A DNA stretch of 51,563 nucleotides from Bdellovibrionota bacterium (GTDB taxonomy: Bacteria > JAGRBM01). The notes beneath the pieces are model-generated. The model was given only the letters and a program-made list of their open reading frames with translations. It was not told where the DNA came from and did not search any database. The translations under genes and the position numbers were made by a program. The stretch spans positions 1-51,563 of the forward strand of contig JBFLVN010000001.1 of NCBI GenBank assembly GCA_040758475.1, written 5' to 3'. This document shows, in pieces, positions 18,567-50,711 of the stretch (position 1 is the first letter of the stretch; each line of letters begins with the position of its first letter).

Positions 18567-18656
18567 GGAGGGGTGGCCGAGCGGTTTAAGGCACCGGTCT
18601 TGAAAACCGGCAGGGCTTTGCGGCCCTCGTGAGTTCGAATCTCACCCCCTCCGCCA
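18567..18656 (+). tRNA. tRNA-Ser, anticodon UGA, encoded CCA
   Basis: Hand-folded. Acceptor GGAGGGG/CCCCTCC. 3-bp D stem GCC/GGC. Anticodon stem CCGGT/ACCGG with loop CTTGAAA (anticodon TGA). Long variable arm (AGGGC..GCCCT) typical of class II Ser. T arm GTGAG-TTCGAAT-CTCAC. Discriminator G followed by CCA. Confidence 0.9.
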
Positions 18657-20232: not shown

Positions 20233-20445
20233 TCACTGATTGTCAAGTAAAATCTGATTCTCGCTTTCGGTGGAAACGGGTGCTTTCGCGTTCCAGCTAT
20301 CCTGGATTATCAGGATTTCAAAAAACTCCCCTAATACCCTGGCCGCTTCCCGGGCTTCTTTGTAGGAGAGTTCCTTCCCGATCTTTTTTCCCAAGACCTC
20401 GGCCGTCATTTTTACAAGCTCCTCCGATGGCGTGAAGGGTTTCAC
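20233..20445 (-). CDS. Hypothetical small protein (70 aa) coupled to the primase gene
   Basis: 4-nt overlap with the stop of the upstream primase ORF. No recognisable motif. Confidence 0.45.
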   Translation of the reverse strand: MKPFTPSEELVKMTAEVLGKKIGKELSYKEAREAARVLGEFFEILIIQDSWNAKAPVSTESENQILLDNQ

Positions 20446-23207
20446 AGGGCTTCCTCGGAGAGGTCTTTGGTGAATTCAAAGTACCGAATCCCCTTGACGG
20501 CTTTCCTTCGCACGCCCCACCCGGCCCGAGTAAGGACTTCTTCGGAGTCGGCAAGCCGGGAGCCCATCTGTTGCGCGCTGGCAAAGGGTGGAAGAAGCCC
20601 CAGTTTCTTTCCAAGCGATCCGAAGGCCCCTTGGAATGTAAGAGCCGTGCCCGTGAAGGTGACTTTCGCAGGAACGCCGTTCTGGAGGGAGATCGTCTCG
20701 TGGCGGATTTTGTATTCTTTCCCGAAATCTTCGTAGCTTCCGGAGTGGAGAAGTTCGCTGGCGAGGTTTTCAAGGAAGAAAACGAAGGGGTTTGTATGAG
20801 TCTCCGCTTCCCGGGCTTTTTCCTCCTGGTTTCCCAAAAGTTCCTCGACGATCTCCTGGGCCATCTTTTCAGCCGGAAGGCTCTTCTTGCGGGCATCGGG
20901 GATATATTTGAGGAGCACTTCCAGGATGACGAAGAGCCCGGAGAGGAACTCATCTAGCCGCTGCTTGGCGTGGCCCGGGTGGTGGAGGCGTAAGTATTGA
21001 AGATAAAAGGCTTTTTTGCTGTTCCAGTGGGGCAAAATTTCTTTGGCGAGCACAAGGAAAAAAGCCGAGAGGATGGAAGAGCGCTTTTCACGGAGTTCTT
21101 CGAGAATGGCGGTTTTTTGAAACCCGGGGCTCCGGTACTTTCCATCGAATTCCAGGCTCCAGGTACGAGTGATCAACTCGTGCTGGTCAAAGGGCTCGAT
21201 CGCCGTGACGATGACCTGGTTATAGAGGCGCTCGTAGACGTTCTCGGAGTCGGTCCCACCCTTTCTTTTTTGATTGACCGTTCCCGTGGCCGCGGCGAGA
21301 AGGAAGTTAAGGGTTCCCCGGTCGATGTCGCGGGATTCCAAATTGTCCTTGATCGTGAGGGGATTTGTCATGCCGTCGGAGAAATCCGAAGCGGTGCGGC
21401 TCTTTCCTACCCAATCCTCCCCATAGACGAGCATGGAACAGAGGTTCGCGGCAGTGGTTTTTCCGGAAGCCGCGCTCCCGCTCATGTGCAAAATGGCCCT
21501 ATCCCGCGAGAAGCCAAGCAGGAAAAGATTCAAAAGCCAGGAAGCCACGAAGTACCGCCCCGCGGCATCGGTGGACAGGTTCGAGAGAAAGAGTCTTCGG
21601 AAATCTAAGAAAGCCCCCTTCACGTCCACGTCGGGAGAAAAATCAATGGGCCGCATTTTATTCGAAGGGCGAAGGAGCGAATTCCTGGCGTTTGGAAGTA
21701 CGGTCACTTCGCCGGGCGCGATTCTTAGAATCTGGTCGTCCGGTCGTGAGGTATGGAGGAAAATCTCACTGTTCTCGACGTGCAACCAGGGGGAAACTTC
21801 GATTCTTCTGCCTGAATTAAGGCACTCGCACTCCAAGGCGTCGAAAATTATTTTCGCTCGCTGCTCCGAGTAGACGATGCGGGCTTTTTCATAGAGAAGC
21901 GCCCGAAATTCCCTTTCGGCCCCCAGGGCAAAAACTTTTCCTTCGTACGAGAGAAAGCATCTCCCGCCGTTCTTTTCGACAAAGAACGCCTTTTCTCCCC
22001 CCAGCCATTCCCAGATCATGAGGGCCTGGTTCTTGGCCGCCTCAGGGGCGAAGAATTTTATCTTTCGCTCTTCGCAGAATTCGAAATAGAGGGAGAGGCA
22101 TTTTTTTAAGGAAACGTACTGGGGCAGGGATTGATCCAGGAGGACTTGAAGGGCGCTCTTCTGGTCTTTCTGGCTCCTCAAATACTCGTCAATGTCCTTC
22201 GTCTCCCCCGGCCAGGTGATGAGCCGCACTTCCGCGGTGGGTTTTTCTAGGATGCCGGCCAGCGTGGGCGGAAGGGGGGCGAGGGTCTCGATTACTTTTT
22301 CCGTATACATCCTCCCCGCTTCATCCTGGTCAAAAGCTAAGAAAATCGTTTTTCCAGGGGAAATCTCCTTGAGGACGTGAAGCTGCTCGCCTGAGAGCTG
22401 CCCGCAGATCGCAAGGACTGACGAAAACCCCCGCCCGGCGACGGTGAGAAGGTCGTTTTGCCCTTCGACCAGGAGGATTTCGTCTTTCTTGAGGGCTACT
22501 TGGTTTAGAAAAACGCATCCAGGGGAGCGGTACTCGGAGCGGAGGCGTAGCGGGGTTTTATCCTGGCTGAAGGGCTTGCAGGTAAAATCCCTAATATCAC
22601 CGTTTGGAAGGTAATGGGGATAAACAAAGAGCCCCGGGGGAAAGGCATCTATGAGCCCTTCTCCCTGCTCTTTGACAAGGCCAGAGGCCAGGAGTTCGTC
22701 CCTACTAAAATCGTGGAGATGCCGGTGAAGGGCGCCATCCGAAAAGCCCACTTGGAAGGCTTTAAGGATTACGGGGGAATGGCCCCGTTTTTCTTGCAAA
22801 TGCTTTAAAGCCTCATGGTTGCGGGGAGCAAAGAGGTTTTCGTGAAAATACTTCGTCGCGGCGGCAAAGACACTTGCACGGGGATTGCTTCCTGCTGATG
22901 GGGCGCTAGGTGCCGCTCCCGGGAAATCCAATTTAATGCCGTAGTCAGCCGCCAGGGCTTTCAAGGCGTCCACAGCCGAACCGAGCATCCGGTACTCTTT
23001 GGCGAACGTGATCACGTCGCCAAATTTCCCGCACTGGAAGCATTTGTAAGTGTCTTCGTAGACCGTGAAGCATTCATGGCCCCGGCAAAACGGGCATTCT
23101 TCCAAGTGGACGTAGTTCGAAAACTTCTTCTTTACCCGGCCGCCCGACTCCTGGATGATGAAATCCAGGAGCCGGACGGCTTCCTTCACCCGCGTAAAAT
23201 CGCTCAT
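20442..23207 (-). CDS. Bifunctional DNA primase (CHC2 zinc finger + TOPRIM) fused to a P-loop NTPase/helicase-like domain
   Basis: Zinc finger CPFCRGHECFTVYEDTYKCFQCGKFGD. TOPRIM ILLVEGQNDLLTV and FDQDEAGR. C-terminal Walker A MSGSAASGKTTAANL. Confidence 0.85.
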   Translation of the reverse strand: MSDFTRVKEAVRLLDFIIQESGGRVKKKFSNYVHLEECPFCRGHECFTVYEDTYKCFQCGKFGDVITFAKEYRMLGSAVDALKALAADYGIKLDFPGAAPSAPSAGSNPRASVFAAATKYFHENLFAPRNHEALKHLQEKRGHSPVILKAFQVGFSDGALHRHLHDFSRDELLASGLVKEQGEGLIDAFPPGLFVYPHYLPNGDIRDFTCKPFSQDKTPLRLRSEYRSPGCVFLNQVALKKDEILLVEGQNDLLTVAGRGFSSVLAICGQLSGEQLHVLKEISPGKTIFLAFDQDEAGRMYTEKVIETLAPLPPTLAGILEKPTAEVRLITWPGETKDIDEYLRSQKDQKSALQVLLDQSLPQYVSLKKCLSLYFEFCEERKIKFFAPEAAKNQALMIWEWLGGEKAFFVEKNGGRCFLSYEGKVFALGAEREFRALLYEKARIVYSEQRAKIIFDALECECLNSGRRIEVSPWLHVENSEIFLHTSRPDDQILRIAPGEVTVLPNARNSLLRPSNKMRPIDFSPDVDVKGAFLDFRRLFLSNLSTDAAGRYFVASWLLNLFLLGFSRDRAILHMSGSAASGKTTAANLCSMLVYGEDWVGKSRTASDFSDGMTNPLTIKDNLESRDIDRGTLNFLLAAATGTVNQKRKGGTDSENVYERLYNQVIVTAIEPFDQHELITRTWSLEFDGKYRSPGFQKTAILEELREKRSSILSAFFLVLAKEILPHWNSKKAFYLQYLRLHHPGHAKQRLDEFLSGLFVILEVLLKYIPDARKKSLPAEKMAQEIVEELLGNQEEKAREAETHTNPFVFFLENLASELLHSGSYEDFGKEYKIRHETISLQNGVPAKVTFTGTALTFQGAFGSLGKKLGLLPPFASAQQMGSRLADSEEVLTRAGWGVRRKAVKGIRYFEFTKDLSEEAL

Positions 23208-24207: not shown

Positions 24208-24630
24208 GTGGCGAGCCCGAAGAAAGAGCAGAAAATAGCCGCCTACGTCCGTAAGGCGCGGGAATCACTGGATATTTCACAAGGCCATCTCGCCAGTCTC
24301 ACGGGCTATAGCGGCCCCGAAGCTATTAGCCGCATCGAGACGGGCCTTGTGGCCTTTCCGTTAGAGAAGGCTCACCTCTTCGCCGACGCCCTGGGCCTGG
24401 ATCGCCGGGAGTTCTGGCTCTTCTGCATGGAGAGTAGCGACGTGGAGCAGCCCAAGAGCTTCGGAGTCTTGGCCAAGGACGGCCTCGTCCCCCCGGACAT
24501 TGCCAATAAGCTGCTTAAAATCCGAAGGTCCGAGCGGTTTTGGGAGAAAGTCCGGGAACTCGTCAAGGACGACGACGAGCGCCGGGAACTCGAAGAGCGG
24601 CTAAAGAAGTTTAAGAAGCCGGCCGCCTGA
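24208..24630 (+). CDS. XRE-family HTH repressor (cI/ImmR-like)
   Basis: GTG start with GAGGAAA 7 nt upstream. HTH IAAYVRKARESLDISQGHLASLTGYSGPEAISRIETG. Followed on the same strand by an ImmA-like peptidase. Confidence 0.75.
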   Translation: MASPKKEQKIAAYVRKARESLDISQGHLASLTGYSGPEAISRIETGLVAFPLEKAHLFADALGLDRREFWLFCMESSDVEQPKSFGVLAKDGLVPPDIANKLLKIRRSERFWEKVRELVKDDDERRELEERLKKFKKPAA

Positions 24631-24928: not shown

Positions 24929-25501
24929 ATGAATTTCCAGCCAAGCAGGGTCTTGTACGCCGCGGAGTGTCTTCTGAAACAACTCGGATGGGAGGATAAA
25001 GAACCCCCTTTCTCGCCTTTGGAGGCGATTCGCTCGCTCTACGAGGGAAGAGTCATTATCTCCACGACGGCGGAATTCTCCAAAGGCGAGAACGGATGCG
25101 TTTATCTGGACCCCGATATTCCCGAAGCAACCTTCATCGCCTTGAACCGGAACGATCCCCTCTGCACCAAGACCGCCACCCTGGCCCACGAGCTTGGGCA
25201 TCTCTTTCTAGGACACCCCTTGGGAGGGCTCGGGGGATGTCTTTGCCGGATAGAGGGCCAGGTAAGCGAGGGAAACGTGATTGAGCGCGAGGCCAATACG
25301 TTTATGAGCGAGTTTTTAGTGCCCTTAAACACCCTGGACCGTTACTTTTCCAAAGACATCTCCCTCATGCGGAAAAAAGACCCCGAGGGCTTCCAGGTGG
25401 AAACCGATCTCCTCTCGCTCCAATTCGGCGTCTCCACTGCCTTCGTCCTAACGCAGCTCTGGCGGCTCCACAGGCAAAGAAAAGATAGGTGGGGGTTATG
25501 A
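24929..25501 (+). CDS. ImmA/IrrE-family zinc metallopeptidase (anti-repressor protease)
   Basis: HEXXH motif in ATLAHELGHLFLGHP, a distal REANTFMSEFLVP block, GGAAGG RBS 8 nt upstream. Confidence 0.8.
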   Translation: MNFQPSRVLYAAECLLKQLGWEDKEPPFSPLEAIRSLYEGRVIISTTAEFSKGENGCVYLDPDIPEATFIALNRNDPLCTKTATLAHELGHLFLGHPLGGLGGCLCRIEGQVSEGNVIEREANTFMSEFLVPLNTLDRYFSKDISLMRKKDPEGFQVETDLLSLQFGVSTAFVLTQLWRLHRQRKDRWGL

Positions 25502-25552: not shown

Positions 25553-26323
25553 TCAAAGATCTTCCGCAATTCTCGGCAATGGATACCCCTTGGCGGTGTG
25601 TGCTTTCATATCTTGACGAAGTTTATCTATATGAAGGATATCCTTGCTGATAGCCTTAGCTGTTGCCGCGAAAAATGCGATTTGTGCTGCTTTACGGCCC
25701 GGCGCTAATCTAATCATAAACTCGCATAGCATGGTTGCCACTCCCTGGAATGATTGGAAAAATGGCTGCTGCATGAAGCGAGGACCGTAGATGTACACGA
25801 ATTCCTCTGGCTCCTTCGTATAATCAATGTCCGCAGTCCCTGTACCTCTGAGATAAACCTCGGCCGCGCTTTTAATTCCCTGGAGCAGGGCGAGGGCACC
25901 TCCCTCTTTTTTTACCCACGATTTGAATGCATCTAGGACTTCTTTGTGATCGGTCGACTCCAGGATGGGTTTTAGTTCGGGACAGTCCAGATATCGCGTA
26001 GGAAGTTCTGCAATAGAGGATATTTCGTCGAAGTTTCGTATTGCGGCATGTTCTGCTGTATCGAGAATTTGCTTTGCTACTAGAAGAGCGTCACGACGAT
26101 TTGTTTCTTGGAGATGCTTAAACTCCGCGAGGAACTGTATCCTCTGTTCTTCGATCTGCCTTGCTTGGTACGAAAGGCTCGCTGAGAACCATATAACCGC
26201 CAGAATTCCAGCTGCTGCTGAAATGATGCTGCCGTAACCGGAAAGGAGATTGATGTCGATTGACGCAATTGCTGCATAAACAGATATAAAAACTAATATT
26301 GTTAAAAGAATTAGCAACCGCAT
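25553..26323 (-). CDS. Uncharacterised protein with two N-terminal TM helices and a ~200-aa cytosolic domain (defence-cluster gene D)
   Basis: ATG at 26323 (MRLLILLTILVFISVYAAIAS) has GGAGG 8 nt upstream. The ORF is also open to an ATG at 26407 that overlaps the helicase stop (ATGA). Second TM is IISAAAGILAVIWFSASL. No family recognised. Confidence 0.6.
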   Translation of the reverse strand: MRLLILLTILVFISVYAAIASIDINLLSGYGSIISAAAGILAVIWFSASLSYQARQIEEQRIQFLAEFKHLQETNRRDALLVAKQILDTAEHAAIRNFDEISSIAELPTRYLDCPELKPILESTDHKEVLDAFKSWVKKEGGALALLQGIKSAAEVYLRGTGTADIDYTKEPEEFVYIYGPRFMQQPFFQSFQGVATMLCEFMIRLAPGRKAAQIAFFAATAKAISKDILHIDKLRQDMKAHTAKGYPLPRIAEDL

Positions 26324-26403
26324 GCATCGTGCCTCCGAGTCGCATTTCATAACCGAGAACCACACGTGATCAGGTTCTCTTTGCCAATCTCGTTCTTGGC
26401 ACG

Positions 26404-28479
26404 TCATTTTCTCAGATCGTCTAAAAACTCTGACGCTGGTTCGACTCCGGTGATGAGTAAGTGATCCCGTGCGCGGGTGCAGGCGACGTAGAGAAGGTGG
26501 CGCTCGGTGTTGTAAACTTCTTCGAGGTCGGAATCGTCCGCGACGGTCTCGATCCGCTCCTGCAAAGGGATGATTTCATCGTCACAGGCCATAACGGCGA
26601 CGGCCCGAAACTCCAGCCCCTTCGCCAAGTGCATGGTACCGAGGGACAGGTAGCCGCTCACCGTCTCGACGTTTTCGTCCAGCAATTTGCAGGGTACTCC
26701 CGCCGCTTCCGCTGCCTTTCGGGCTCGCTCCATTTGGGTTGTCGAGCGTACGAAAACCCCTATTTCGTGGGGCTTGATGCCCTCGTTTCCCAGCTCAGAG
26801 AGCCACGCTCCGACTTTCTTGATCTCGTCTTCCTGTGTCTTGAGAACTGCGATTGTCGGCTCCGGCCCATTGAAGACTGAGACCGTGCCGCGCCGATCTT
26901 CTGTATTCCCGTCCACGTCCGAGATTTCGGGCCCCAGGAGCCGGTCGGCCTGCATTCTGATCTGATGGGATGTCCGGTAGTTGATCCGCAGGGTGCGCGA
27001 GCGCCCGCGGACCTCCACGCCCAGGGATTTCCAGGAAAAGGGCTGCTGGAAAATCCGTTGGCCCAGGTCGCCGGCAAAGAAGAGGCCGTTCGGCCGCTTC
27101 GCTCCGAGGGCCGCGAGGAAACGCAATTGGGGGATGTCTATGTCCTGGGCCTCGTCCACGACGGCAAAATCAAACGGCGGGCTCTTGCTGTTTTCAAGAT
27201 GGGAGGCCAAGCGGCAGAACATCTCGGCTTCCGTGACGAGCCCGCGATCTCGCAGTTGGGAGCGCACCTGATCGACAATAGACCACAGCGCGAGCCGTTG
27301 CTTCTCGGGAAGACGGGTCTTGCGTCCCAGGCGCACTACGTCCCGGTACGCCTCCCAGGTTTTCAACTGCCACGCATCAACTACTTGCTCCCATTCCGTA
27401 AGCAGGAAGTACGGACTGAATTTCTTGCCTTCTTCCATTGTCCCGGCGGCCGCCATGAGCAGTTCGCGGAGCGTTTCTCGAGAAGGGACTTGTAACTTTC
27501 CCACGTTCATTTCGTAGAGCCGCCTACCGATGGAGTTCATCGAATGAACTTCAAGGCGCTCCCCAAGACGAGGCTCGTTGCTGATGAGCCGCCGCAGCTT
27601 GGTACGCAGGGCATTAGCAAGCGTGTCGGAGAATGTCGCCAGGAGCACCCGGGCATCCGGGTTCCTGCGGGCCAGAAATACCGCCCGGTGTAGGGCGACG
27701 ATGGTTTTTCCCGTCCCCGCCGAGCCCGAAACCCGCGCCGGACCGCCAAAATCCCGCTCCACGATCTCCCGCTGGGCCGGATGCAAAAAGATCGTCCACT
27801 TCTCCCAGGGGTATTCGAGAGCGCGTTCGAGTTCCTCCACATTGGCCATCAACCGGAAGCGACGTTGGGCGTCGGGATGGACAAAGGGATCGGTACCGGC
27901 CGGGGCTGGTCGTGCGATCTGAGGCGTTACGCCCGTCGCCAAGTCCAGCAGGGCCTCGGCGGCCTCTCCTGGCAGGTGATCAGCCAGCTCCAGTATTGAA
28001 TCCTCGTCGGCCCGGCGCACGTCGGCCAGCCACTCGGCAGGCACCCCATAGCGGAGGAGGTCGTCATCGGAGAGGTGGGAGAAAAGAGAGGGTTTGGTAG
28101 GCGCGGGGCGCTCGACCTCGACGTGCTTGGGAATCGTGATTTCCTCGATCCGCTCGCGGATTTCAACAAACTGCGCGGCACCGGTCTTGGGGTGCGTCTC
28201 CAGTTTGCGGCGTTCCGCCCAGCGGTAGGCAGAATCATGGTGATCGACGTAGCACAGGAGCAGGCTCGCCGCCGTTTTATGAACAATCAGGCGGATGTCC
28301 CGGGTTACCCGCACCGACCAGAAGTTCTTGTCCTTTGCTTTGTCGAGCTTGTGGAACTGCATTCCCGGATTGGCGGGATTCATTTGCAGGTCAAAAGCCG
28401 TGGTTTTCACGGCCTTCTGCTCTTCACCGGTCAACCGGGCCAAGCTGTCGGTGAAGGTATCGGCGATACGGAATTGCAT
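26404..28479 (-). CDS. SF1 UvrD/Rep-type helicase with N-terminal RelE/ParE-fold-like domain (defence-cluster gene C)
   Basis: Helicase motifs GSAGTGKT (I), VVDEAQDI (II), FFAGDLGQRIF (III), INYRTS (IV), TMHLAKGLEFRAV (V), LLYVACTRARDHLLI (VI). The N-terminal ~95 aa (QKAVKTTAFDLQMNPANPGMQFHKLDKAKDKNFWSVRVTRDIRLIVHKTAASLLLCYVDHHDSAY) follow the RelE/ParE pattern. Confidence 0.85.
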   Translation of the reverse strand: MQFRIADTFTDSLARLTGEEQKAVKTTAFDLQMNPANPGMQFHKLDKAKDKNFWSVRVTRDIRLIVHKTAASLLLCYVDHHDSAYRWAERRKLETHPKTGAAQFVEIRERIEEITIPKHVEVERPAPTKPSLFSHLSDDDLLRYGVPAEWLADVRRADEDSILELADHLPGEAAEALLDLATGVTPQIARPAPAGTDPFVHPDAQRRFRLMANVEELERALEYPWEKWTIFLHPAQREIVERDFGGPARVSGSAGTGKTIVALHRAVFLARRNPDARVLLATFSDTLANALRTKLRRLISNEPRLGERLEVHSMNSIGRRLYEMNVGKLQVPSRETLRELLMAAAGTMEEGKKFSPYFLLTEWEQVVDAWQLKTWEAYRDVVRLGRKTRLPEKQRLALWSIVDQVRSQLRDRGLVTEAEMFCRLASHLENSKSPPFDFAVVDEAQDIDIPQLRFLAALGAKRPNGLFFAGDLGQRIFQQPFSWKSLGVEVRGRSRTLRINYRTSHQIRMQADRLLGPEISDVDGNTEDRRGTVSVFNGPEPTIAVLKTQEDEIKKVGAWLSELGNEGIKPHEIGVFVRSTTQMERARKAAEAAGVPCKLLDENVETVSGYLSLGTMHLAKGLEFRAVAVMACDDEIIPLQERIETVADDSDLEEVYNTERHLLYVACTRARDHLLITGVEPASEFLDDLRK

Positions 28480-28531
28480 CACTTCGTTGCACTCATGTTT
28501 CAGTAGTTAAAAGGGTAGGGCTACCCATGCA

Positions 28532-29443
28532 TCACCGCTCCACAATTTCACCAGTGTTGGCATCCACCATAAAGCGTTTGAGATCTTGATCAAAAACAAT
28601 CAAGTCGTTCTCATCAAATCCTTCAGTGATGAGCTCTGCAACCTTATCTGATGTGACTTTCATGAACTTTGTGTCTCGCATAATGTCAAACTGGATAAGT
28701 AGACCTGCAATGGGGACTCCGCCGCGATTCTCCACTTCTATCGTGGCATCCACCAACGGGACCTTCATATCCACGTGCCTGGGAGAATCCCAGCTTACCT
28801 CCTTCATTTTTCTTTCGATGAAATCATTGACCTGAACTCGCTCGCCTGGAAGGTTTAAGCAGACAGGCTGGCCGCGCCATAGGCCAGCCGATCCGCCTTT
28901 AATCGACTGTATATCGTCAGTGATTTTCTTACGGTCTTCCTCGTTGGTGACCGCAAACGTGACTTGGGGGGTGCTCGTTCCAATTATGTGGAACGTCAGA
29001 TGGATCGATTTGATTCGTCCTTCCCAATCAGATTCCTTAAACTCTCGCAATACGGCCAACTTTATTCCTTTATGCTTCGCGAACTTCTGGGCATCCCTAG
29101 TAAAGCCATTGCAGGTGAGAATTATTGATTCATCAGGATGAATATCATCCACAACGGCCGAAAAGTTCCGGATAATGTCCAAGCCTACTTTATCGCCTGA
29201 GACATCGAAGTCTTTGCACTCGATCAAGATTCGTCTTAGATTTCCCTCCTTACTTCGGACCGTCACATCTATTTGATGCTTAACGCCTGAGTCGCCCGAT
29301 AGCTCCAGGTCATGTATTACAACCTCATCCTGTTCTAACTTTTTAAGCAGAAATGCAGTCAGAATTTCGTAGCGGGTGCCCTGTTTCGTCGAGAGAATGG
29401 TGTGGTACTTATCGTGTATTTCATCATAACGTGACTTTGCCAT
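28532..29443 (-). CDS. Mrr-type PD-(D/E)xK restriction-endonuclease-domain protein with unassigned C-terminal domain (defence-cluster gene B)
   Basis: Core GTRYEILTAFLL...SGDSGVKHQIDVTV...RRILIECKDF...VGLDIIRNF...ILTCNGFTRDAQKFA. ATG at 29443 has AAGGTGG 8 nt upstream (the track start at 29455 is a GTG). Confidence 0.75.
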   Translation of the reverse strand: MAKSRYDEIHDKYHTILSTKQGTRYEILTAFLLKKLEQDEVVIHDLELSGDSGVKHQIDVTVRSKEGNLRRILIECKDFDVSGDKVGLDIIRNFSAVVDDIHPDESIILTCNGFTRDAQKFAKHKGIKLAVLREFKESDWEGRIKSIHLTFHIIGTSTPQVTFAVTNEEDRKKITDDIQSIKGGSAGLWRGQPVCLNLPGERVQVNDFIERKMKEVSWDSPRHVDMKVPLVDATIEVENRGGVPIAGLLIQFDIMRDTKFMKVTSDKVAELITEGFDENDLIVFDQDLKRFMVDANTGEIVER

Positions 29444-29492
29444 GCCGACTTCCACCTTTCCCCAGGGCCTTCGATTGTCCTGGTTTGGGATG

Positions 29493-30818
29493 TCATTTCC
29501 GTGCGACCTGAACGATTTTAGCTACAGCCTCCAATATGTCTTTTGGGAGGTTCGATAGAATATCAGGTTCGGACTCCGCGCTGGCGCGCCGATCGAACTG
29601 AGAATCTTTAAATATCTTCTCGATGGTTTCCGTGAGAAACTTCGCGTATTCAACGGCTTGGTCCTTTGCTGCCAAGTCCCTCACTAATGTCGAGTAACCC
29701 TCAAGCGACAGTGACAGAGCCGATTTAAACGCATATACCTCTTCGGCGGAACGATCTCGCCTATATTGCGAAGCAAAAAAGTAAATCAGAAAGATTATGG
29801 GCCCGATAGAGAGCAATCTGATCCAGAAAAGCGAGCCCGCATCTTTTTGGCCGAACTCAAGCACCAGCACAAACGTTCCAACTGCTGCTGCTGCTGCTGC
29901 GAAAGCCAAAAACCACAACCATCGCTTGCGGGCTGTATATAATTCTTCTTTTCGTTGGTGAAATGCACGGAACAATCCCGTACTCGTCGCAATCTTGAGT
30001 TGCGCCTTATATTTCTCCTGTAATTCGCCAAGTTGGCGAAGCAAGTCGGTCGTCTCGGCCTTGTGCTTCTCCATTGCTTTTTCGGCAGTGTAAATGGATG
30101 ATTCTAATTTTTTCTTGTTCTCGTCAATTTCGCCATGAAACTTGACGATCTTTTCCCGAAGCGCCCCCACTTCATCGCTCGATTTCTTTATCTCTGCTTG
30201 TTGGGCTGTAATTTGGTCTTTACTGGTTGTAACTGCCACAACGGCTTGCTGAGCTTGGGCTTGTAAAGTCTGCGCCTCCTTTGAGGCATTGGCGGCAGCA
30301 ATCTTTGACTCGTTCACTTGCGCGAGTGAGGTTTGTGCCTGAGTCCGGATATCCTCTGCTTCTCGTGCTTTCTTGAGAGCGTTTTCAAGTTCGCTTTGTA
30401 GTTGACCAACGTACCGGAGTTTCTGCTCGAATTGGGATATGCTTTCATTCCGGTGAAAGAGGCCTGAACTCCAAAGTGTTTGGTGCAGAACATTTATACC
30501 GTTGGAGAGATTTGTAAAATTATCCAATGATGGACCAACGATCCATTGATCAAGATGAGGATATATCTGCTTTTGTAATGTGTTCCTGAGGCTAACCAGA
30601 ATGTTGAACGGCGCGGTAGTGCCTTCGACAAAAACAGCATCAAGTAATGCATCAATACATGACGCGAGGATTGTAAGTTGCCCAACAGCATCGGAGCGAT
30701 GCTCTTCGGGTGTTTTATTTGGCCAGCCCTGGTAAGTCTTTATATCCTGTGCTCGATCCGCTAAATCACGGGGATAGCTCTCCAATTTCTGCCGTGTTTG
30801 TATGTCTGCCGTACCCAT
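29493..30818 (-). CDS. Coiled-coil protein with two C-proximal TM helices (defence-cluster gene A)
   Basis: AAGGGAG RBS. Long Q/A/K/E heptad-like region (aa ~140-290). TM helices WLWFLAFAAAAAAVGTFVLVLEF and LFWIRLLSIGPIIFLIYFFA. No NTPase motif and no family recognised. Confidence 0.6.
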   Translation of the reverse strand: MGTADIQTRQKLESYPRDLADRAQDIKTYQGWPNKTPEEHRSDAVGQLTILASCIDALLDAVFVEGTTAPFNILVSLRNTLQKQIYPHLDQWIVGPSLDNFTNLSNGINVLHQTLWSSGLFHRNESISQFEQKLRYVGQLQSELENALKKAREAEDIRTQAQTSLAQVNESKIAAANASKEAQTLQAQAQQAVVAVTTSKDQITAQQAEIKKSSDEVGALREKIVKFHGEIDENKKKLESSIYTAEKAMEKHKAETTDLLRQLGELQEKYKAQLKIATSTGLFRAFHQRKEELYTARKRWLWFLAFAAAAAAVGTFVLVLEFGQKDAGSLFWIRLLSIGPIIFLIYFFASQYRRDRSAEEVYAFKSALSLSLEGYSTLVRDLAAKDQAVEYAKFLTETIEKIFKDSQFDRRASAESEPDILSNLPKDILEAVAKIVQVARK

Positions 30819-30865: not shown

Positions 30866-33655
30866 TCACCCCACTCTAAACACCTTCATCACTTCATCCC
30901 CCAGGTGATTGATGACTTTCACGGCGATGCGGCCGGATTTGGGCTTATCGAAGGGCCTGGAGGTGTCGCTGTGGAGCGTGGCCCAGGCGTCCTCATTGAT
31001 CTCAGCCTTGAGGGTGGTTTTGAGCGCCTTGTAGGGGTCGTTCGCCCCTAGGAAATAGGCGTGGCGGACGAAGAAGCTTTCCTCATTGTAGTCGGTATCA
31101 ATGAACCAGCAGGCGATCCCCTCGGGACCGTCGCTTCGGACTTCGCCCGTATTGGGGTGGAACACGTCCACGCCATTCACCTTGACCTGGATCTGGCCGT
31201 CCTTGGCATTGAGAACCTCGATGTCGGGCTCGCCGAAGATGACGAAGAGATTCCCCTTGCCCGTGTTCTTCAAATCCCCGGCCATGTGCAGGTCTGCGTT
31301 CATGCGGGCTTTGAGCACGGGGATACGGCCTAGCTTGTCAAAATCGGTGGAACGGGCGTCGTAGTTGAAGGCGCAGGCGATGAGCACGTCGAAGCCCGCG
31401 TCCCCAGCCTCCCGGGCGGCTTCCACAAGATCGGGGCGCGAGACAGTGCCGAATTCAGGACCGATGAAGACAGCCGCTCGCTTCTCCTTGCCGCCTTCTA
31501 AATATCGCCCCTCTGCGCACACCAGCGTCCCCGGCCAGGGGGTGAGGAACGTGAAATCAATCTTGTCTTCCTTGTGGGCCTGTTGGACCCCGGCGGTCTT
31601 CAAATTCTCCAGGATCATCTGAACGAAGGTCAGTCCTTCGCCGTAGCCGCCTGCTTGGTCGTCAACGCGGATCAACTCGTCGTCCTCGTCCACTCCGAGA
31701 ACCCGGTGGGGCGTCAAGCTCTCTACCGTGAACGGCCCCGCCACGCGGACCTTTTTCTTGTCCTCGTAGGGCCGGTTATAGAGGTGCTCGAACTCCGCCT
31801 TGGCCGCAATGGAGGCGTCGATCTCCCTCTGCCGGGCGATGCGTTGCTCCCACCATTGAGCGTGGAGCTTCTTGGCCTCTGCGGGCCATTTCTCATCCGC
31901 CTCATGGGGGATCTCCCATTCCTCCCATTTATGCTTGAGGGCCTTGTTCAATTTGTCCCGCAGCGGTTCAAGGGTCTTCTGGAACTTCTCCCAAATCACG
32001 TCGATCTCGGCGTTGTTGGCAATGGATTTGAGCGTGATGTGCGGCACCCGCTCGTAGACGAACCCCTGGCGGATGTCCCCGCGGGTCGGCTGGCTCGAAG
32101 GCCCGGTTCGGGTGACTTCCGCTTCCTTGATCTGACCGTCCTTTGAATCGGCCAGCAGGTAATATGGATATCGAGCCCCCATGATCCGAGCACGGGCCAG
32201 CGCGAGCGCCACGCGGGAGGTGTCAATTGTGATCCAGCGGCGGCCCCATTGCTCGGCGACATAAGCGCTCGTTCCAGAACCGCATGTTGGATCGAGAATG
32301 AGATCGCCGGGATCAGTGGCCATAAGGATGCAACGTTCGACTACTGATGGCGCTGTTTGAACGACATAGATAAGGCCGGTACCAATTTGAAGTGATTCCC
32401 ATCGATCACTTATCGGTAATACCGCAAAATCGTCTTTGTATCGCTTATAGCGGATTGTCGAATTGCCGGCCGCGACTCGTCCGCTTTTGGCCAATGTTGA
32501 AAGGCCCGTGATCGTCGTTTTCCAGTGGCTCGATGCACCTGGCTGATAGGTTTTTTCTTGAAAACGAAAGCTCTGCTCAGTATTTGCTTGACCGGAGCTG
32601 ATCAAGCTGGTATGCCGAAAAATTCGGCCTTCGGGAAGTAGTTCAGGGCGAGCAAGTTCGTCTTTACTCAATCGCCTTTCGATACCATTTCCCAACTCGA
32701 CTTGATCGTAGCGATCCGAGGAGACGTGTCCTGCGACACGCTCGTCGTATAGTTGTCGGTACTTTACGTGTTCACGGGATTTTGCAAACCACACAATAAA
32801 ATCAACGGTATTAGCAAGCAATTTTGACGCTTGGCTACCAGTCTTTTGGACTTGAATGATTGAGATAAAATTATCTTCACCATAAACTTCATCCATTACT
32901 GATCGCACACGATGCAGATTCTCATCTCCTATTTGCACAAAGATGGAGCCGGAATCGGCCAATAAATCCCGAGCGACAGTGAGCCGATCTCTCAGATAGG
33001 TTAGATAGGAATGGATGCCATCCCGCCAAGTATCCCGAAACGCCTTCACCTGTTCTGGCTCACGGGTGATGTGCTCGGCGCTCCCATCCTTTACATCCCG
33101 GCTGGTCGTGGACCATTGGAAGTTTGAGTTGAACTTGATGCCGTAGGGCGGGTCGAAGTAGATGCACTGAACCTGACCCCGGAGCCCTTCGCGTTCGGCG
33201 AGCGAAGCCATCACCTGGAGGCTATCTCCCAGGATCATGCGGTTCTGCCATTTGCCGTCGTGTTGGTAGAAATCGGTCTTGTCGGCGCCTTCGGGGAGGC
33301 CATTAAAGTCAGCAAAGAGATCAAACTGGTTCTGAGTGGCCTTTTGGTCGGCCTCGCTGCGACGCAGGAGGTCGTCAATTAGGACCTTGGGGTGGACTTT
33401 TTCCTGGATGTAAAGCGGCGGGGCGTGGACCACGAGGTCCGACCAGTCCTGCTCATCCTTGCCGCGCCAGACGAGTTGTGGGTCTAAATCGCGGTTACGG
33501 CGCTCGTAGGCCACCCGGATCGGCGTCTGTTCTTCTTTCTGCATCACCGACTGGAACTCAGCGGAAGGAATGTTTTTTCGCGTGGCCTCGGTGTGCTTGA
33601 AGGTCTCGACTGTTTTCTTCGAGGCGAGCTTCTTGCCTGTCTTCTTGGCGGCCAT
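30866..33655 (-). CDS. mod: Type III R-M DNA methyltransferase (Mod, beta-class N6A/N4C MTase) with long C-terminal extension
   Basis: Motif IV IYFDPPYGIKFNSNF lies upstream of motif I ILDPTCGSGTSAYVAEQWGRRWITID (beta-class order). 929 aa. Starts 10 nt after the res stop. Confidence 0.9.
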   Translation of the reverse strand: MAAKKTGKKLASKKTVETFKHTEATRKNIPSAEFQSVMQKEEQTPIRVAYERRNRDLDPQLVWRGKDEQDWSDLVVHAPPLYIQEKVHPKVLIDDLLRRSEADQKATQNQFDLFADFNGLPEGADKTDFYQHDGKWQNRMILGDSLQVMASLAEREGLRGQVQCIYFDPPYGIKFNSNFQWSTTSRDVKDGSAEHITREPEQVKAFRDTWRDGIHSYLTYLRDRLTVARDLLADSGSIFVQIGDENLHRVRSVMDEVYGEDNFISIIQVQKTGSQASKLLANTVDFIVWFAKSREHVKYRQLYDERVAGHVSSDRYDQVELGNGIERRLSKDELARPELLPEGRIFRHTSLISSGQANTEQSFRFQEKTYQPGASSHWKTTITGLSTLAKSGRVAAGNSTIRYKRYKDDFAVLPISDRWESLQIGTGLIYVVQTAPSVVERCILMATDPGDLILDPTCGSGTSAYVAEQWGRRWITIDTSRVALALARARIMGARYPYYLLADSKDGQIKEAEVTRTGPSSQPTRGDIRQGFVYERVPHITLKSIANNAEIDVIWEKFQKTLEPLRDKLNKALKHKWEEWEIPHEADEKWPAEAKKLHAQWWEQRIARQREIDASIAAKAEFEHLYNRPYEDKKKVRVAGPFTVESLTPHRVLGVDEDDELIRVDDQAGGYGEGLTFVQMILENLKTAGVQQAHKEDKIDFTFLTPWPGTLVCAEGRYLEGGKEKRAAVFIGPEFGTVSRPDLVEAAREAGDAGFDVLIACAFNYDARSTDFDKLGRIPVLKARMNADLHMAGDLKNTGKGNLFVIFGEPDIEVLNAKDGQIQVKVNGVDVFHPNTGEVRSDGPEGIACWFIDTDYNEESFFVRHAYFLGANDPYKALKTTLKAEINEDAWATLHSDTSRPFDKPKSGRIAVKVINHLGDEVMKVFRVG

Positions 33656-33665: not shown

Positions 33666-36600
33666 CTATTTCCCCGTCTTCGCGGTTACCGATTCAACCA
33701 TCTTTTTGAACGCGGCCTCGATCTCGTAAACATCCGTGAACTCGGTGAAAGCCCAGCGTCCGTACTGACGCAGGTTATTCACTCCCGGCATCCAGTAGGT
33801 ATCCATCGTGGCTTTCTTGTCCTTGGCGTCCTCTCCCCGGTAGCCCTTGATCTCTATAATGAGGTTGAGCGTGTCGGCACGGCCGTCGTCCACCTGCACG
33901 ATGAAATCGGGGATGTACTTGCGCATCGTGGAACCGTAGCGGTAGGGGACTTCGAGCCCGAGGCCGTGGTTCTTTACGTAGGCCCGGACTTTGGGATGGG
34001 TTTCGGCTACCCGACAGAACTCGGCCTCCCAATCACTATCCAGTACCACCCAGTTGACGTGGCACTTGCGCGAGTCGGTCTGCCAACGGCTTGACTTGGA
34101 GGTGGCAAAATGGACGTGCTTGGTTGAACCCTCCGCGTTGTAAGGATCGAGCACGGCCTTGATGGGCCGTTTCCCCATGAGAGCACGGGTGATCCCGGCG
34201 GTGATACGCTCGCAGGCCATGTCGGCAAGCTCCTGGTACATGAGCTGGGCCGGGAATGTGCCACCCTTGCAGACGAGGCAGGTATCGAGCCATTGCTTGG
34301 TAATTCGCTTTAGCTGACCGAACAGGTGGAGCTTGGGGTCGTCCCCCTGGTCCCGCCATTTTGTGTAGATGAGGCGCTTCGTCAGGTGAAAGAGCAGCGT
34401 TGACTGCCTCAAGTCCCCCGTATGGACGAGATTGAGGTCGATGCCTTCCCCGATAATTCCTGCGTTCCTGGTGATGGAAGGACCAACCTGGTCCGGCGTG
34501 AGTTCCAGGGTAGAGTCTGGGGTAAACGCCGCGGTTAGGCGCTCCTCGCCCAACTCAATCCGGTACCCCTGAACCCTAGGGAAACGAATCTCCAAGGCAT
34601 CTCGTTCGGGACTCATGGCCTTTACCTGGATCGTCTCCCGGGGTTTCTGGGGCGGGGCGATTACGGGCTTGGCCGTGAAATCGAAGGGAATTCCCAGCAC
34701 GTCGGCGTACTCCACATCGAAGAGATTGTCTTCGTTGAGATCATAGGATTGGCGCCGCAAGGCACGTCCGATCACCTGCTCGCAAAGAAGCTGCGTGCCG
34801 AAAGCCCGCACACCCAGGACGTGGGTGACGGTGTTCGTGTCCCAACCCTCCGTCAGCATAGAGACGGACACGACGCAGCGGATGGACTCGCCGAGGCGGC
34901 CTTCCTTGCCCACAGTGTTCATCGCTTCCCGGAGCAGATCCTGATCCGTCAGGTTCTCCGCCTTGCTGCGGTCTCCGGTGCGCTCCACGATCTCTCGGCG
35001 GAAACGCTCGATCTCATCCGCCGCCATTTTTCGGAAGTCGTCGTCCAAGGTCTTCCCCGACTCCAACTGCTCGCTGTCAATCAGAAGGGTTCTTGGGCGG
35101 GGAATCTGATTGCCATGCTCGTCAAAATTGCGGAACAGGGCCAGACGGCCGTTCTCCAGCGTCGTAGAGCCGTCCTCGTTTTCCCGGTGAAACCCCGAAA
35201 TGTAGTCGTAGACTAGCTTGGACGTGGAGGTGTTGTTGCAGACGACAATGAAACAGGGCGGAACTTTGATGCCGGCATCCTTCCAAAGGTTGAAAGTCTT
35301 TTCATAGTGGCCGTAGAGGGCCTCCAGGGCGGTTTGCAGTTCCACGGGGATGCTCAAAGGATCGAGCGTCCCAGACTTCTCCCGCCCCTTCTTGGGCATC
35401 TTGCCCCGGATGTGTTCCCACAGGTTGCGGAACTTGGGCATGTCGCCGCCGGGGATGTTATCGGCGACGGGGACGCGCGGGAGCTTCACGATCCCGCATT
35501 CGATCGCGTCCATGAGTGAGAAGTCACTTACGGTCCAGGGGAAGAGGGTCCCCTCGGCATAGCCGGAGCCGCGCAGGAAGAAAGGCGTGGCCGAGAGGTC
35601 AATCACGCGGGCCAGCCCTAGCTTGCGCTTCACGGTTTCAAGGCCCGAAATCCAGACGCGGGCAGCCTCGTTGTTCTTCTCGGCTTCCTTCTTCTCTTCA
35701 CCCTTGAGATCGTCGTCATCATCCTCACCATCGGGTTTCTCCCGATAGCAGTGATGGGCCTCGTCGTTGAGCACCAGGACGTTCTTCATGCCCATGAGGT
35801 CCGGCATCACCCGCTGGAGCATCTGCCCCTCGGTCTCCAGCGTTTTGATCTCCTGGCCGCGGCCCTGGAGAAGGGCGCGCCCCGTCTTGGAGATTTCCAT
35901 TCGCTCGCGCATCTGGAAAGCGTGGAAATTCGTTATGACGATCTTGGCGTGCTTTACGTCGCCCAACATGTCACCGGGAACCAGCTCGCGGCTCTGGTAG
36001 TAGCTGTCCGGATCGTTGGGCTGGAGTACCCGCAGGCGGTCGCGGATCGTAAGGCCGGGCGTCACCACGAGGAATCCCCGCGTGAAGTGCTTGCTCCCCT
36101 GGCGGCGGACGGCGTTGATCGTCTGCCACGCGATGAGCATGGCCATGACGGTCGTCTTGCCCGCACCAGTGGCGAGCTTGAGGGCCATCCGCAGGAGTTC
36201 GGGATTGGCGTCGTTGTTGGCATTTGCCAGGTGGTCCAGGAACTTGCTTCCGGTCTTGCCGAGCTTGGGGGCCACCTCTGTCAGGTAGATGACCGTCTCG
36301 ATGGTCTCGACCTGGCAGAAGAAAGGACGAATATCGCTGAATTTGTAGTGACGCCAGTGCTGAAGCAGCCGGGCAGTCTCGGGCGTTACGTTCCAATCGT
36401 TGGGGTTCGGAAGCGCCCTCCACTGATCCACGTGGCGGCGTAGTTCATTGATGTTGGAGGTAGTCTCGTATTGTTGATCGGTTGTCGAGAGCCCTTTGCC
36501 CTCATCGAAGACGATTTCCCGTTGGCCTTTGGATTTATGTTTCTTCGGCTTGGGGATGGGGGTAATGAAGGAGACCTTCCGGCGCTCCTCGATGATCCGT

Positions 36601-36695
36601 TGCGTGGGCTGGCCGCTCTCGTCCAACTCCCAATGGCGAGCCGGATACTCGTAGGGGGAGTTGAGGATCGGTTGCTCAAAGAAACGGTTGTCCAT
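33666..36695 (-). CDS. res: Type III restriction enzyme Res subunit (SF2 DEAH helicase + C-terminal PD-(D/E)xK nuclease)
   Basis: Walker A LATGAGKTTVMAMLIAW, DEAH in VLNDEAHHCY, helicase-C block MLTEGWDTNTVTHVLGVRAF. C-terminal nuclease-like YIPDFIVQVDD...LNLIIEIKGY. The likely start is the ATG at 36695 (MDNRFFEQPILNSPYEYP). The track ORF opens at 36728. Confidence 0.9.
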   Translation of the reverse strand: MDNRFFEQPILNSPYEYPARHWELDESGQPTQRIIEERRKVSFITPIPKPKKHKSKGQREIVFDEGKGLSTTDQQYETTSNINELRRHVDQWRALPNPNDWNVTPETARLLQHWRHYKFSDIRPFFCQVETIETVIYLTEVAPKLGKTGSKFLDHLANANNDANPELLRMALKLATGAGKTTVMAMLIAWQTINAVRRQGSKHFTRGFLVVTPGLTIRDRLRVLQPNDPDSYYQSRELVPGDMLGDVKHAKIVITNFHAFQMRERMEISKTGRALLQGRGQEIKTLETEGQMLQRVMPDLMGMKNVLVLNDEAHHCYREKPDGEDDDDDLKGEEKKEAEKNNEAARVWISGLETVKRKLGLARVIDLSATPFFLRGSGYAEGTLFPWTVSDFSLMDAIECGIVKLPRVPVADNIPGGDMPKFRNLWEHIRGKMPKKGREKSGTLDPLSIPVELQTALEALYGHYEKTFNLWKDAGIKVPPCFIVVCNNTSTSKLVYDYISGFHRENEDGSTTLENGRLALFRNFDEHGNQIPRPRTLLIDSEQLESGKTLDDDFRKMAADEIERFRREIVERTGDRSKAENLTDQDLLREAMNTVGKEGRLGESIRCVVSVSMLTEGWDTNTVTHVLGVRAFGTQLLCEQVIGRALRRQSYDLNEDNLFDVEYADVLGIPFDFTAKPVIAPPQKPRETIQVKAMSPERDALEIRFPRVQGYRIELGEERLTAAFTPDSTLELTPDQVGPSITRNAGIIGEGIDLNLVHTGDLRQSTLLFHLTKRLIYTKWRDQGDDPKLHLFGQLKRITKQWLDTCLVCKGGTFPAQLMYQELADMACERITAGITRALMGKRPIKAVLDPYNAEGSTKHVHFATSKSSRWQTDSRKCHVNWVVLDSDWEAEFCRVAETHPKVRAYVKNHGLGLEVPYRYGSTMRKYIPDFIVQVDDGRADTLNLIIEIKGYRGEDAKDKKATMDTYWMPGVNNLRQYGRWAFTEFTDVYEIEAAFKKMVESVTAKTGK

Positions 36696-36904
36696 TAGAT
36701 TTGCTTCCAAACCGTCTCTACCATTCAAAACGAGGTCTAATAACTGTATTTCCCAGATTCATCAAGGCGTTTCCGCCTTAAAATCCTCATATCCTCCAAG
36801 CCTTGTTTTAAGGAGCACTCGTTCTAAGAGCTGTATTTCTTGCAACCTAATGGAGTGGAGTTTTGGGCATTTATCAAAAGGAAGACACTGCGAACGGGTA
36901 GTTC

Positions 36905-38162: not shown

Positions 38163-38903
38163 TGCATCATGCGCCTCCTGGCATCTTTTCGGAACGGAAA
38201 AGTCTTCGGGGACTTACGATCCGGTGAAAACGCCAGGAGTCTCTCTAGGGTGAGAGCGATCATAGCGGGGTCGAAGCGGTTTGCAAGATGGCCTCAGGTG
38301 CCCAAAGACTGAAAGGAAAAATCCGAGGACGAGGAGGAGGAAACCTGCAAGACACTGGATTTACTGGAAAAATAACCTGTGCCCACCAAGTAGGCACTCC
38401 TGCGGCCCTGGCTCTCAGGCTGGCGCGAAGGCGTAAACCCGGTTTACGGTCGCACGTTGGAAGGCAAAGGGTGGGCGCCAACTAAGTATGCACTAATGGG
38501 AGGAGCGCACTGTGCGAGTGCAGCCAAAAAACAGCCTTGTGGCGCGATTTTCTCAAAGATTACGGCTCCTTATGCTGCTTTTCCAAGTGTGAGCCCCGTA
38601 GCTATTACAAAACGGCCGACCGAAAATCGGATATGGCATCGTAGCAAAATGAGTAGTTCGGCGGCGGTGAGCGACGCTCAATGGCGATTTCCCGAGTTAT
38701 TTCAGGGAGTTGGGCTTGAAAAGGGTGTACACAAATAGTGCACGGATTTGAAAGGGGACGGTTGATTTCTCTCTTGCCATTGGTTTAATAAGCAAACTGT
38801 AACCAAACGAATTGGCCCTGTCGTGGTGGCGGGGCCTGTTCCAGCTAGCGGGGACAACAAGGGGCGGTTTTTGGGGAAAGAAACCGCTGGAGGAGTCATC
38901 ACG

Positions 38904-50324: not shown

Positions 50325-50711
50325 ATGTCAGGACCGTTCCGTGAACGTTTTGCGAATCTACATCTCGGTGAAAAGATTGCTATTATCGTTATACCAGTTG
50401 CGTTTATTGTGGTGCCTATATATTTTACATATTCGGACGAATATAGAATGGCGAAAGAGTTTTGTTGGAATGCAGAATCTGTAATTGAGTCAATTGGACA
50501 GGTTCGAAGCGTAACATGGCGACCGTGGAAGGGATTCAGCAATAGGAGGGGAAAGGGGCGCGTGGTTTTTTACGTTGAAGGGATGACGGGCGAAGGCGAA
50601 CTAACTGTATTAATAAGAACCGATAGGAATGTTGGTTGCGTGGAGGTCAGAAGAGCTGTTTTAAAAGGCACAAATGGTGAGCGTGAATTGGATGGATGGG
50701 AATGCCGATAG
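50325..50711 (+). CDS. Small single-TM protein, candidate RHS immunity protein 1
   Basis: GAGGT RBS 7 nt upstream, 30 nt after the RHS stop. TM helix IAIIVIPVAFIVVPIYF followed by a ~90-aa domain. Low GC. Confidence 0.55.
   Translation: MSGPFRERFANLHLGEKIAIIVIPVAFIVVPIYFTYSDEYRMAKEFCWNAESVIESIGQVRSVTWRPWKGFSNRRGKGRVVFYVEGMTGEGELTVLIRTDRNVGCVEVRRAVLKGTNGERELDGWECR

Follow-up and report, generated by a model that had tools for sequence, protein, structure and literature searches.

A RelE/YoeB-like, ArmD-family helicase at the end of a Type III-like restriction-modification operon in a Bdellovibrionota bacterium

The locus described here raises the question of what a RelE/ParE-like domain does at the front of a DNA helicase of superfamily 1 (SF1). 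It lies in a stretch of 51,563 nucleotides (nt) from a Bdellovibrionota bacterium (GenBank assembly GCA_040758475.1, contig JBFLVN010000001.1, positions 1 to 51,563), here referred to as the window. A first-pass annotation of the letters had offered two options for this protein, a helicase-gated effector or a toxin fold reused as a nucleic-acid or ribosome sensor. We found that the protein is a member of the ArmD family, in which the fusion of a RelE-like head with a helicase is already known. New here are the host system, which is a Type III-like restriction-modification (RM) operon, the extreme conservation and spread of the helicase, and its place at the edge of a slot in which other defence systems are embedded. 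As to function, the evidence inclines us, by no great amount, towards an ArmD-type accessory motor-effector of the Res-Mod system whose head is probably an active RNase.

Three parts of one protein

The whole gene of this ArmD-family RelE-like/UvrD-like helicase occupies 26404..28482 on the minus strand, with its stop codon at 26404-26406, as judged from the open reading frame (ORF) call, the domain matches and the collinear ArmD homology. A GTG start at 28482 gives 692 amino acids (aa), and an ATG one codon on, at 28479, gives the 691-aa protein called by NCBI. The first-pass annotation had the coordinates right and left the strand unstated; the strings it quoted correspond to aa 18-86 and aa 137-181. 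The NCBI product name for the protein and many of its relatives is '3'-5' exonuclease', and the automatic JGI label for many relatives is 'mRNA-degrading endonuclease RelE'. None of the libraries scanned showed an exonuclease domain in the helicase or its relatives, and there is no NCBIfam model specific for the RelE-head helicase family.

First, the head comprises aa 1-108 (28159..28482, minus), as delimited by the predicted model, Foldseek, conservation and the alignment with YoeB. The first ~95 residues had been read as RelE/ParE-like, and the predicted structure bears this out. An AlphaFold2 model of aa 1-110, built from an input of 32 sequences, has a predicted local distance difference test (pLDDT) score of 93.4 and a predicted template modelling (pTM) score of 0.86. 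Its topology is beta1-alpha1-alpha2-beta2-5-alpha3 with an extra C-terminal beta-hairpin (aa 92-107). In a Foldseek search of the PDB with this model, all of the best 50 matches (50/50) are proteins of the RelE/ParE superfamily; the best is YoeB 2a6r (E=7.7e-5), and the target-normalised TM scores range from 0.65 to 0.76. The other matches include RelE 3bpq, 2khe, YafQ, HP0892/HP0894, ParE2, ParDE, HigB and Cami1, a CARF-RelE defence effector whose structure was solved on the ribosome. At the sequence level, the Pfam model HigB-like_toxin (PF05015) matches aa 38-82 of the protein with 20.2 bits, below its cut-off of 27, and gives such below-threshold matches in 26 of 32 diverged family members, with scores of 20.2-23.1 bits. 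The sequence evidence alone is weak though consistent. The assignment is settled by predicted structure and fold search: the head, as modelled, is of the RelE/ParE-superfamily (BECR) fold and not a plain or winged helix-turn-helix (HTH). It is basic, with an isoelectric point (pI) of 9.4 (9.3-9.4 across the window and ArmD clades), and it is the best-conserved region, with a mean pairwise identity of 0.80 versus 0.70 for the helicase among 83 family members. When the representative genomes were searched exhaustively with aa 1-110, the best 150 matches were mostly fragments of the same family.

The fold itself leaves room for the head being a ParE-like inhibitor of DNA gyrase or of another DNA enzyme instead of an RNase. 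The Pfam ParE_like model gives weak, below-threshold matches in 13 of the 32 diverged members, the fold matches include structures of ParE2 and ParDE, and action on DNA would suit a DNA helicase. Foldseek, however, ranks YoeB, RelE, YafQ and HP0892/0894 above ParE and HigB, and ParE toxins are without the catalytic R and H residues that are invariant in the head, so that we hold this possibility to be very improbable.

Second, the middle region (aa 109-232) had been described as an acidic linker of ~120 aa. It is indeed acidic, with a net charge of -11, but it is not a plain linker, since it is non-uniform and includes a folded four-helix domain between a tether and a motif-bearing stretch. 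The tether (aa 109-134; 28081..28158, minus) is of low conservation, with a mean pairwise identity of 0.55, and is predicted to be disordered (pLDDT <50 at 110-126). The acidic four-helix domain (aa 135-190; 27913..28080, minus), delimited by predicted helices, conservation and charge, has a pI of 4.05, a net charge of -10 and a pLDDT of about 80, with predicted helices at 139-144, 149-157, 163-167 and 172-182; its G146, P171 and G184 are invariant in both the window and ArmD clades. The low-confidence segment that follows (aa 191-232; 27787..27912, minus) carries the conserved motifs DPFxHPDAQRRFR and EELxRALEYPWEKW and ends at the helicase Q-motif. A profile search of the acidic domain against the PDB matched a designed repeat protein alone, which was judged spurious. 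The GVP and LPxEA motifs had suggested a tandem helix-hairpin-helix, DNA-binding domain; this reading was dropped, since the acidity of the domain speaks against DNA binding. The window protein and E. coli ArmD have in common that a basic head is paired with an acidic domain. An in-cis neutraliser or a partner-binding module would fit the acidic domain, a fit that does not prove either.

Third, the protein ends in the full SF1 helicase that the first-pass annotation had recognized (aa 233-692; 26407..27786, minus). The Pfam domains UvrD-helicase (aa 234-479) and UvrD_C (aa 613-678) both score above their cut-offs, with 57.3 and 64.6 bits, and each of the SF1 motifs Q, I, Ia, II, III, V and VI is there in intact form, including Walker A (GSAGTGKT, aa 253-260, where K259 equals K266 of ArmD) and Walker B (VVDEAQD, aa 441-447, where D443 equals D454 of ArmD). 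PDB profile matches comprise UvrD, PcrA, Rep, HelD and GajB, with UvrD and PcrA nearer (E about 1e-19) than GajB (E about 7e-6), and both Foldseek and residue mapping agree with the helicase assignment. The core is thus a compact SF1A helicase of the UvrD/PcrA/Rep type. In PADLOC, the best matches of the protein, over its helicase part, are the GajB and NERD-UvrD (C3a187) models, the GajB matches being partial. GajB of Gabija and the NERD-UvrD proteins are likewise compact UvrD-type SF1 defence helicases. However, GajB has a GajA partner (ATPase-TOPRIM), and no GajA is present in the window; the NERD-UvrD proteins carry a NERD domain, in place of which the window protein has its RelE-like head. 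A full-length model of the protein reached a pLDDT of 71 and a pTM of 0.42, and because of this pTM the packing of the head against the helicase cannot be read from it.

The Pfam UvrD domains and the NCBI product name would suit a housekeeping repair helicase of the UvrD/PcrA/Rep kind, or the '3'-5' exonuclease' of the label. In fact, the NCBIfam uvrD, pcrA and rep equivalog cut-offs are missed more than 10-fold (the best is pcrA, 61 versus 911 bits), no exonuclease domain is there, and the distribution is patchy and horizontally transferred, with members that lie within defence operons, are carried by plasmids or belong to integrated elements. Genomic context and equivalog scores therefore refute the housekeeping reading, to which we give next to no credence.

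The ArmD family and the Res-Mod-helicase frame

E. coli ArmD is described in a 2025 preprint on YprA-family helicases as a "GajB-like helicase with RelE-like domain" and belongs to the ARMADA Type II defence system (bioRxiv 10.1101/2025.09.15.676423 and 10.1101/2025.09.22.677730). We recovered its gene (WP_000218177.1), beside that of ArmC (WP_000937974.1), from an O157:H7 genome. It was reached through tblastn on plasmids and then a DNA search; blastn of the window gene against E. coli genomes gave no match. BLASTP aligns aa 6-678 of the window protein with WP_000218177.1 collinearly, at 32% identity (E=9e-95). Homologs at 31-40% identity are found in ARMADA-type operons on E. coli and Klebsiella plasmids, in Thermus and in Tsukamurella, and it is only for homologs at this level that an ARMADA context was seen. 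Because ArmD aligns end to end and these homologs sit in ARMADA-type operons, the fusion counts as already known. The survey of multidomain RelE/ParE toxins by Gerdes (2025), text and supplements, does not mention helicase fusions. In the ARMADA-like operon of the Tsukamurella plasmid (L089, 12016-15935), the ArmD-like gene is followed directly, with a 4-nt overlap, by a second gene with a UvrD-helicase domain, whose product has 597 aa.

The window protein and ArmD share a RelE-like head, an acidic helical domain and a compact UvrD/GajB-like helicase, the invariant head residues R64, H82, D83 and Y86 (window numbering), and the last place in a co-directional operon that opens with genes for an SF2 helicase(-nuclease) and a DNA methyltransferase. 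Their partners are not alike. In ARMADA these are ArmA (Snf2/BrxHII-like), ArmB (a PglX-like methyltransferase of about 1640 aa) and ArmC (a YprA-like helicase of about 2100 aa with DUF1998), whereas the window clade has a BPTD_3080-family Res and a Type III Mod. The window clade is also far more conserved than the ArmD clade, at about 70-80% across phyla, and unlike ArmD it bounds a slot for embedded defence systems. It is very widespread as well: a word-indexed search for the ~690-aa architecture returned at least 8000 candidates, the best of which are 75-80% identical across distant phyla. Among species-representative genomes, the survey of spread and neighbours counted at least 587 loci in more than 12 phyla, with Res-Mod upstream and variable cargo. 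The RelE-head helicase occurs on plasmids and on 18 IMG/VR contigs, too.

In the window, the operon opens with Res (33666..36728, minus), a 1020-aa restriction endonuclease of the BPTD_3080 family that combines an SF2 ATPase with an endonuclease. It matches the Pfam domains ResIII and RE_endonuc and is a full member of NCBIfam NF046055 (1381 bits, cut-off 800); its similarity to the canonical Type III Res models is weak and remote. Mod (30866..33655, minus) is a 929-aa N6/N4 DNA methyltransferase of the Type III kind, with a Pfam N6_N4_Mtase domain and a full-length match to the PADLOC model MTase_III PDLC03632 (1457 bits). We found no literature naming BPTD_3080. Hma was considered as the host frame and rejected, no Hma model being among the PADLOC matches listed (the best 25 for the helicase and for Mod, and those of Res). 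Canonical Type III systems are defined without a third subunit that is a helicase. Res and Mod are adjacent and co-directional, as in Type III systems, and they are not the ArmA/B/C set of ARMADA. The window operon is thus a Type III-like RM operon with the helicase as its conserved terminal gene.

We called and clustered ORFs on 84 related loci plus the window, using a simple ORF caller that may inflate cargo counts. A fixed frame emerged, comprising Res (~1020 aa), Mod (~930 aa), 0-5 or more co-directional variable genes, and the helicase last; nothing is conserved downstream of it. In 49 loci the sequence reaches 6 kb or more upstream. Mod (cluster c1) lies co-directionally upstream of the helicase in 43 of them, directly adjoining it in 8; it went undetected in the remaining 6, and no Mod was detected at locus L004. 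A three-gene operon free of cargo is found, for instance, on p1NCPPB4222 of Pseudomonas avellanae (L087, 4037-12097). The start of the helicase gene often overlaps the preceding gene by 1-4 nt. The same Mod is present in 16/16 IMG/VR contigs with upstream room, and Res wherever the contig extends far enough; the helicase is present on 10 of 12 plasmids with a Res at least 50% identical. More distant BPTD_3080 systems, such as that of the Picosynechococcus plasmid pAQ5, are without the helicase. The defence association is supported by this conserved operon with its embedded defence systems.

The frame also bears on whether the gene might be a self-contained abortive-infection gene (toxin, in-cis antitoxin and motor) that merely lodges beside RM genes in defence islands and acts independently of Res and Mod. 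A basic toxin-like head with an acidic domain does resemble fused toxin-antitoxin single-gene modules, and no separate, cognate antitoxin gene is conserved beside the helicase, where Mod or variable cargo lies upstream and no neighbour downstream is conserved. Mod goes undetected in the few loci just mentioned, and other defence genes adjoin the helicase. On the other side stands its fixed last place, co-directional and often overlapping, behind the same Res-Mod family in 43/49, 16/16 and 10/12 cases. In the sister clade, ArmD too has its fixed place after a methyltransferase/helicase-nuclease set, and alone it is insufficient. We therefore consider such independence unlikely.

A candidate active site and the role it suggests

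For comparison with YoeB we used a sequence identical to PDB 2a6q_E, and the published catalytic numbering is applicable for that reason. The catalytic residues of YoeB, said to go back to work by Kamada and Hanaoka in 2005, are reportedly E46, R65, H83 and Y84. BLASTP, hhalign and a merged profile alignment agree in placing R59, R65 and H83 of YoeB on R58, R64 and H82 of the head. Of the four catalytic residues, R65 and H83 thus align with invariant ones; E46 and Y84 are taken up below. H44, R58, R64, H68, H82 and Y86 are 100% conserved in the 83 family members, and R64, H82, D83, A85 and Y86 are invariant through the ArmD clade, at 31% identity. At position 44 the window clade has H and E. 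coli ArmD has E, by which acid/base chemistry is kept. The equivalent residues in ArmD are E48 (for H/E44), R62 (R58), R68 (R64), H88 (H82), D89 (D83) and Y92 (Y86). On this sequence evidence, the conservation of residues equivalent to the YoeB catalytic ones favours the effector option over the reused sensor, and the head is probably a catalytically active RNase, with activity and gating both inferred.

YoeB, RelE and YafQ are ribosome-dependent mRNA interferases, with which the head shares fold, topology, basic surface and the R58/R64/H82 columns. It differs from them by an extra helix and beta-hairpin (aa 82-107) and by its fusion to a 580-aa C-terminal region; moreover, they are type II toxins in two-gene modules, and the window head has no separate antitoxin gene. 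There are precedents for RelE-fold effectors on larger defence proteins, namely Cami1, HEC-07 and the RTL domain of CoCoNuT CnuH. All of them likewise join a RelE-fold module to a sensor or motor that serves in anti-phage defence. The CnuH RTL domain stands, like the window head, N-terminal to an SF1 helicase, a UPF1-like one, although CnuH belongs to McrBC-type systems. The partner domains of the three differ (CARF, AdoMetDC-like and SmpB-like OB), and no likeness by sequence is claimed.

The reading towards which we incline would work as follows. As is established for these families, Mod marks the DNA of the host, and invading DNA that is unmethylated is recognised and attacked by Res-Mod. 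The helicase would serve as an accessory motor, driven by ATP, that takes hold of DNA at the restriction step or later. The RelE/YoeB-like head would be a catalytically competent RNase that is silent in the resting protein, silenced probably by the acidic domain and/or the helicase. Engagement of target DNA by the motor would release or position the head, which may then cut RNA, most plausibly mRNA on ribosomes translating the transcripts of the invader. The outcome would be a translation block added to DNA restriction. The helicase gene also forms the downstream edge of a slot, from Mod to helicase, that takes in other defence systems. We propose the accessory-motor role because ArmD is needed for ARMADA defence, the experiments having been made on ArmD only: the defence is lost on deletion of armD or with the K266A exchange and is weakened by D454N, and it takes all four arm genes, ArmD alone being insufficient (2025 preprint).

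Several points weigh against this reading. ARMADA defence is reported to be direct and non-abortive (2025 preprint), which argues against a global translation shut-off. The ArmD residues mutated in that preprint are K266 and D454, with no residues of the RelE-like domain among them, and in the second preprint, which confirmed ARMADA II in EDL933, deletion of armD was milder than the other arm deletions. As for the head, no curated toxin-family model of Pfam matches it above threshold, PDB sequence searches with the N-terminal region (single sequence and family profile) found no toxin, and the hhalign comparison with YoeB is weak (E about 0.003). YoeB E46 aligns with K45, adjoining H44, so that the general-base column is uncertain by a single residue. 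The counterpart of YoeB Y84 in the alignment is D83, not a tyrosine, the invariant Y86 lying three residues on. For ArmD and the window protein alike, RNase activity is something we infer. In-cis inhibition of the head is speculation, the inter-domain geometry of the full-length model being unreliable. Co-variation of the helicase with Mod is weak (rho 0.30, the pairs not being independent) and with Res there is none; it is gene order that suggests physical contact of the helicase with Res or Mod.

In the main rival reading, the RelE fold is retained but non-catalytic. It would be a module for docking or sensing by which the helicase is recruited or licensed, with the ATPase as the sole enzymatic activity. 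Candidate ligands are RNA, ribosomes, RNA polymerase, and the Res/Mod or ArmC partner. The non-abortive phenotype points in this direction, although a locally confined RNase would be compatible with it as well. The CoCoNuT authors were undecided whether the RelE-like RTL domain of CnuH is active, and ParE-type members of the fold are non-nucleolytic. The missing tyrosine and the ambiguous general base fit a docking module, and the very high conservation of the head also suits a conserved binding interface. On the other hand, the invariant residues are of the R/H/Y types used in phosphodiester cleavage and stand at the catalytic columns of YoeB, the H-to-E exchange at position 44 between the clades preserves acid/base chemistry, and the fold search places RNase members, not ParE, at the top. 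We regard a docking or sensing head as a serious possibility, if on the whole an improbable one.

Going further than the accessory motor-effector, ArmD-like proteins may be a portable 'third arm' for different methylation-based restriction systems, ARMADA and the Type III-like RM system of the window among them. A single chain would be made up of an active, ribosome-dependent RNase of the YoeB type, an acidic domain that acts in cis like an antitoxin, and a DNA motor by which the RNase is set free on invader DNA only. We put this forward tentatively and think it rather doubtful. If true, DNA restriction would be physically coupled to a local shut-off of invader translation, and the very high conservation of the head between phyla would stem from its docking to the A site of the ribosome, which is universally conserved.

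Embedded cargo and surroundings of the operon

The interval between Mod and the helicase holds a variety of defence genes in the related loci. They comprise Lamassu (LmuA/C/B), two Hachiman types, IetAS, SIR2-HerA, a SIR2-pAgo fusion and DRT UG14, as well as GmrSD/SspE-like HEC-06 proteins, OLD/AriA-like ATPases and cassettes without a PADLOC match. Helicases beside the same cargo are 67% identical, versus 70% to other helicases, and show no cargo-specific clustering; since they are no more alike, the helicase is to be counted with the frame, not with the cargo. Published embedded defence cassettes are likewise co-directional and nested between conserved genes of a host restriction-like system, and GmrSD-like HEC-06, ABC ATPases and Lamassu are cargo types common to them and to this slot. 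The published account of embedded cassettes does not mention a Type III-like Res-Mod-ArmD-like frame.

In the window, the slot contains two genes. The first (29493..30818, minus) encodes a 441-aa coiled-coil protein with predicted membrane segments, which is not conserved in other loci. The second (28532..29455, minus) encodes a 307-aa restriction-endonuclease-like protein with a Pfam Mrr_cat match (E=1.1e-11), a member of a widespread ~300-aa family. The 441-aa protein was considered as a conserved partner of the Mrr-like gene and rejected, the pairing not being kept among Mrr-like homologs. On the other side of the helicase, a window-specific gene for a 284-aa membrane protein without a family match (25553..26407, minus) has its start overlapping the helicase stop by 4 nt.

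Elsewhere, a three-gene cassette, c4-c5-c12 (~250, 180 and 140 aa), lies between Mod and the helicase in 4-6 loci and has no PADLOC match. Examples are L040:7194-7952, L062:3727-4269 and L024:1533-1955, and it occurs in L015 and L063, too. Its first gene alone matches a family, TIGR04255, an uncharacterised 'sporadic' one. Because it is embedded in the slot, the cassette is a candidate new defence system (guilt-by-embedding). A second insertion point lies between Res and Mod, where L001, L019, L033, L035 and L061 hold a gene for a ~490-aa DUF4062 + HATPase_c_4 protein (cluster c6) with weak PADLOC similarity to pAgo-associated N-terminal domains. On plasmid pAQ5 of Picosynechococcus sp. PCC 7002 (L092, 7989-16591), a UPF0175/DUF3368 toxin-antitoxin-like pair lies between Res and Mod, and the place of the helicase after Mod is taken by a 624-aa protein that combines an ATPase with a cytidine-deaminase domain.

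The defence operon of the window appears to ride on an integrated element. A tRNA-Ser (18567-18656) abuts the gene of a large serine recombinase (18642-20171, minus), and beyond 19 kb the GC content falls from about 0.64 to 0.47-0.60. Beyond the recombinase lie a gene for a 921-aa DnaG/Toprim primase-like protein (20442-23207) and HTH regulators, among the neighbouring genes also a pair of HTH and M78-peptidase genes (24208-24630 and 24929-25501) with CapH/CapP-like PADLOC matches. The far boundary of the island was not found; the sole repeat of the tRNA end lies inside a giant repeat ORF and is probably due to chance. This ORF (38823-50294, plus) encodes 3823 aa with He_PIG/Ig repeats (period about 288 nt), teneurin-type NHL, TTR and YD-shell domains and RHS repeats, and looks like a Rhs/teneurin-like polymorphic toxin; the small ORF after it (50696-51160, plus) could be its immunity gene.

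For the family, these results put the RelE-like head of ArmD-type helicases on a much firmer basis than the published support, an HHpred match with E=0.0085. The basis now consists of a confident predicted fold, invariant candidate catalytic residues and the conserved pairing of a basic head with an acidic domain. The ArmD-type module is not confined to ARMADA, as it also ends a Type III-like RM operon that is very widespread and moves horizontally. Such a spread suggests a general route for restriction systems to acquire an accessory function, whether RNA-directed or that of a motor. Moreover, the interval from Mod to the helicase constitutes a new 'embedding' site with many known systems and several unknown cassettes in it, and it could therefore be mined for new defence genes.

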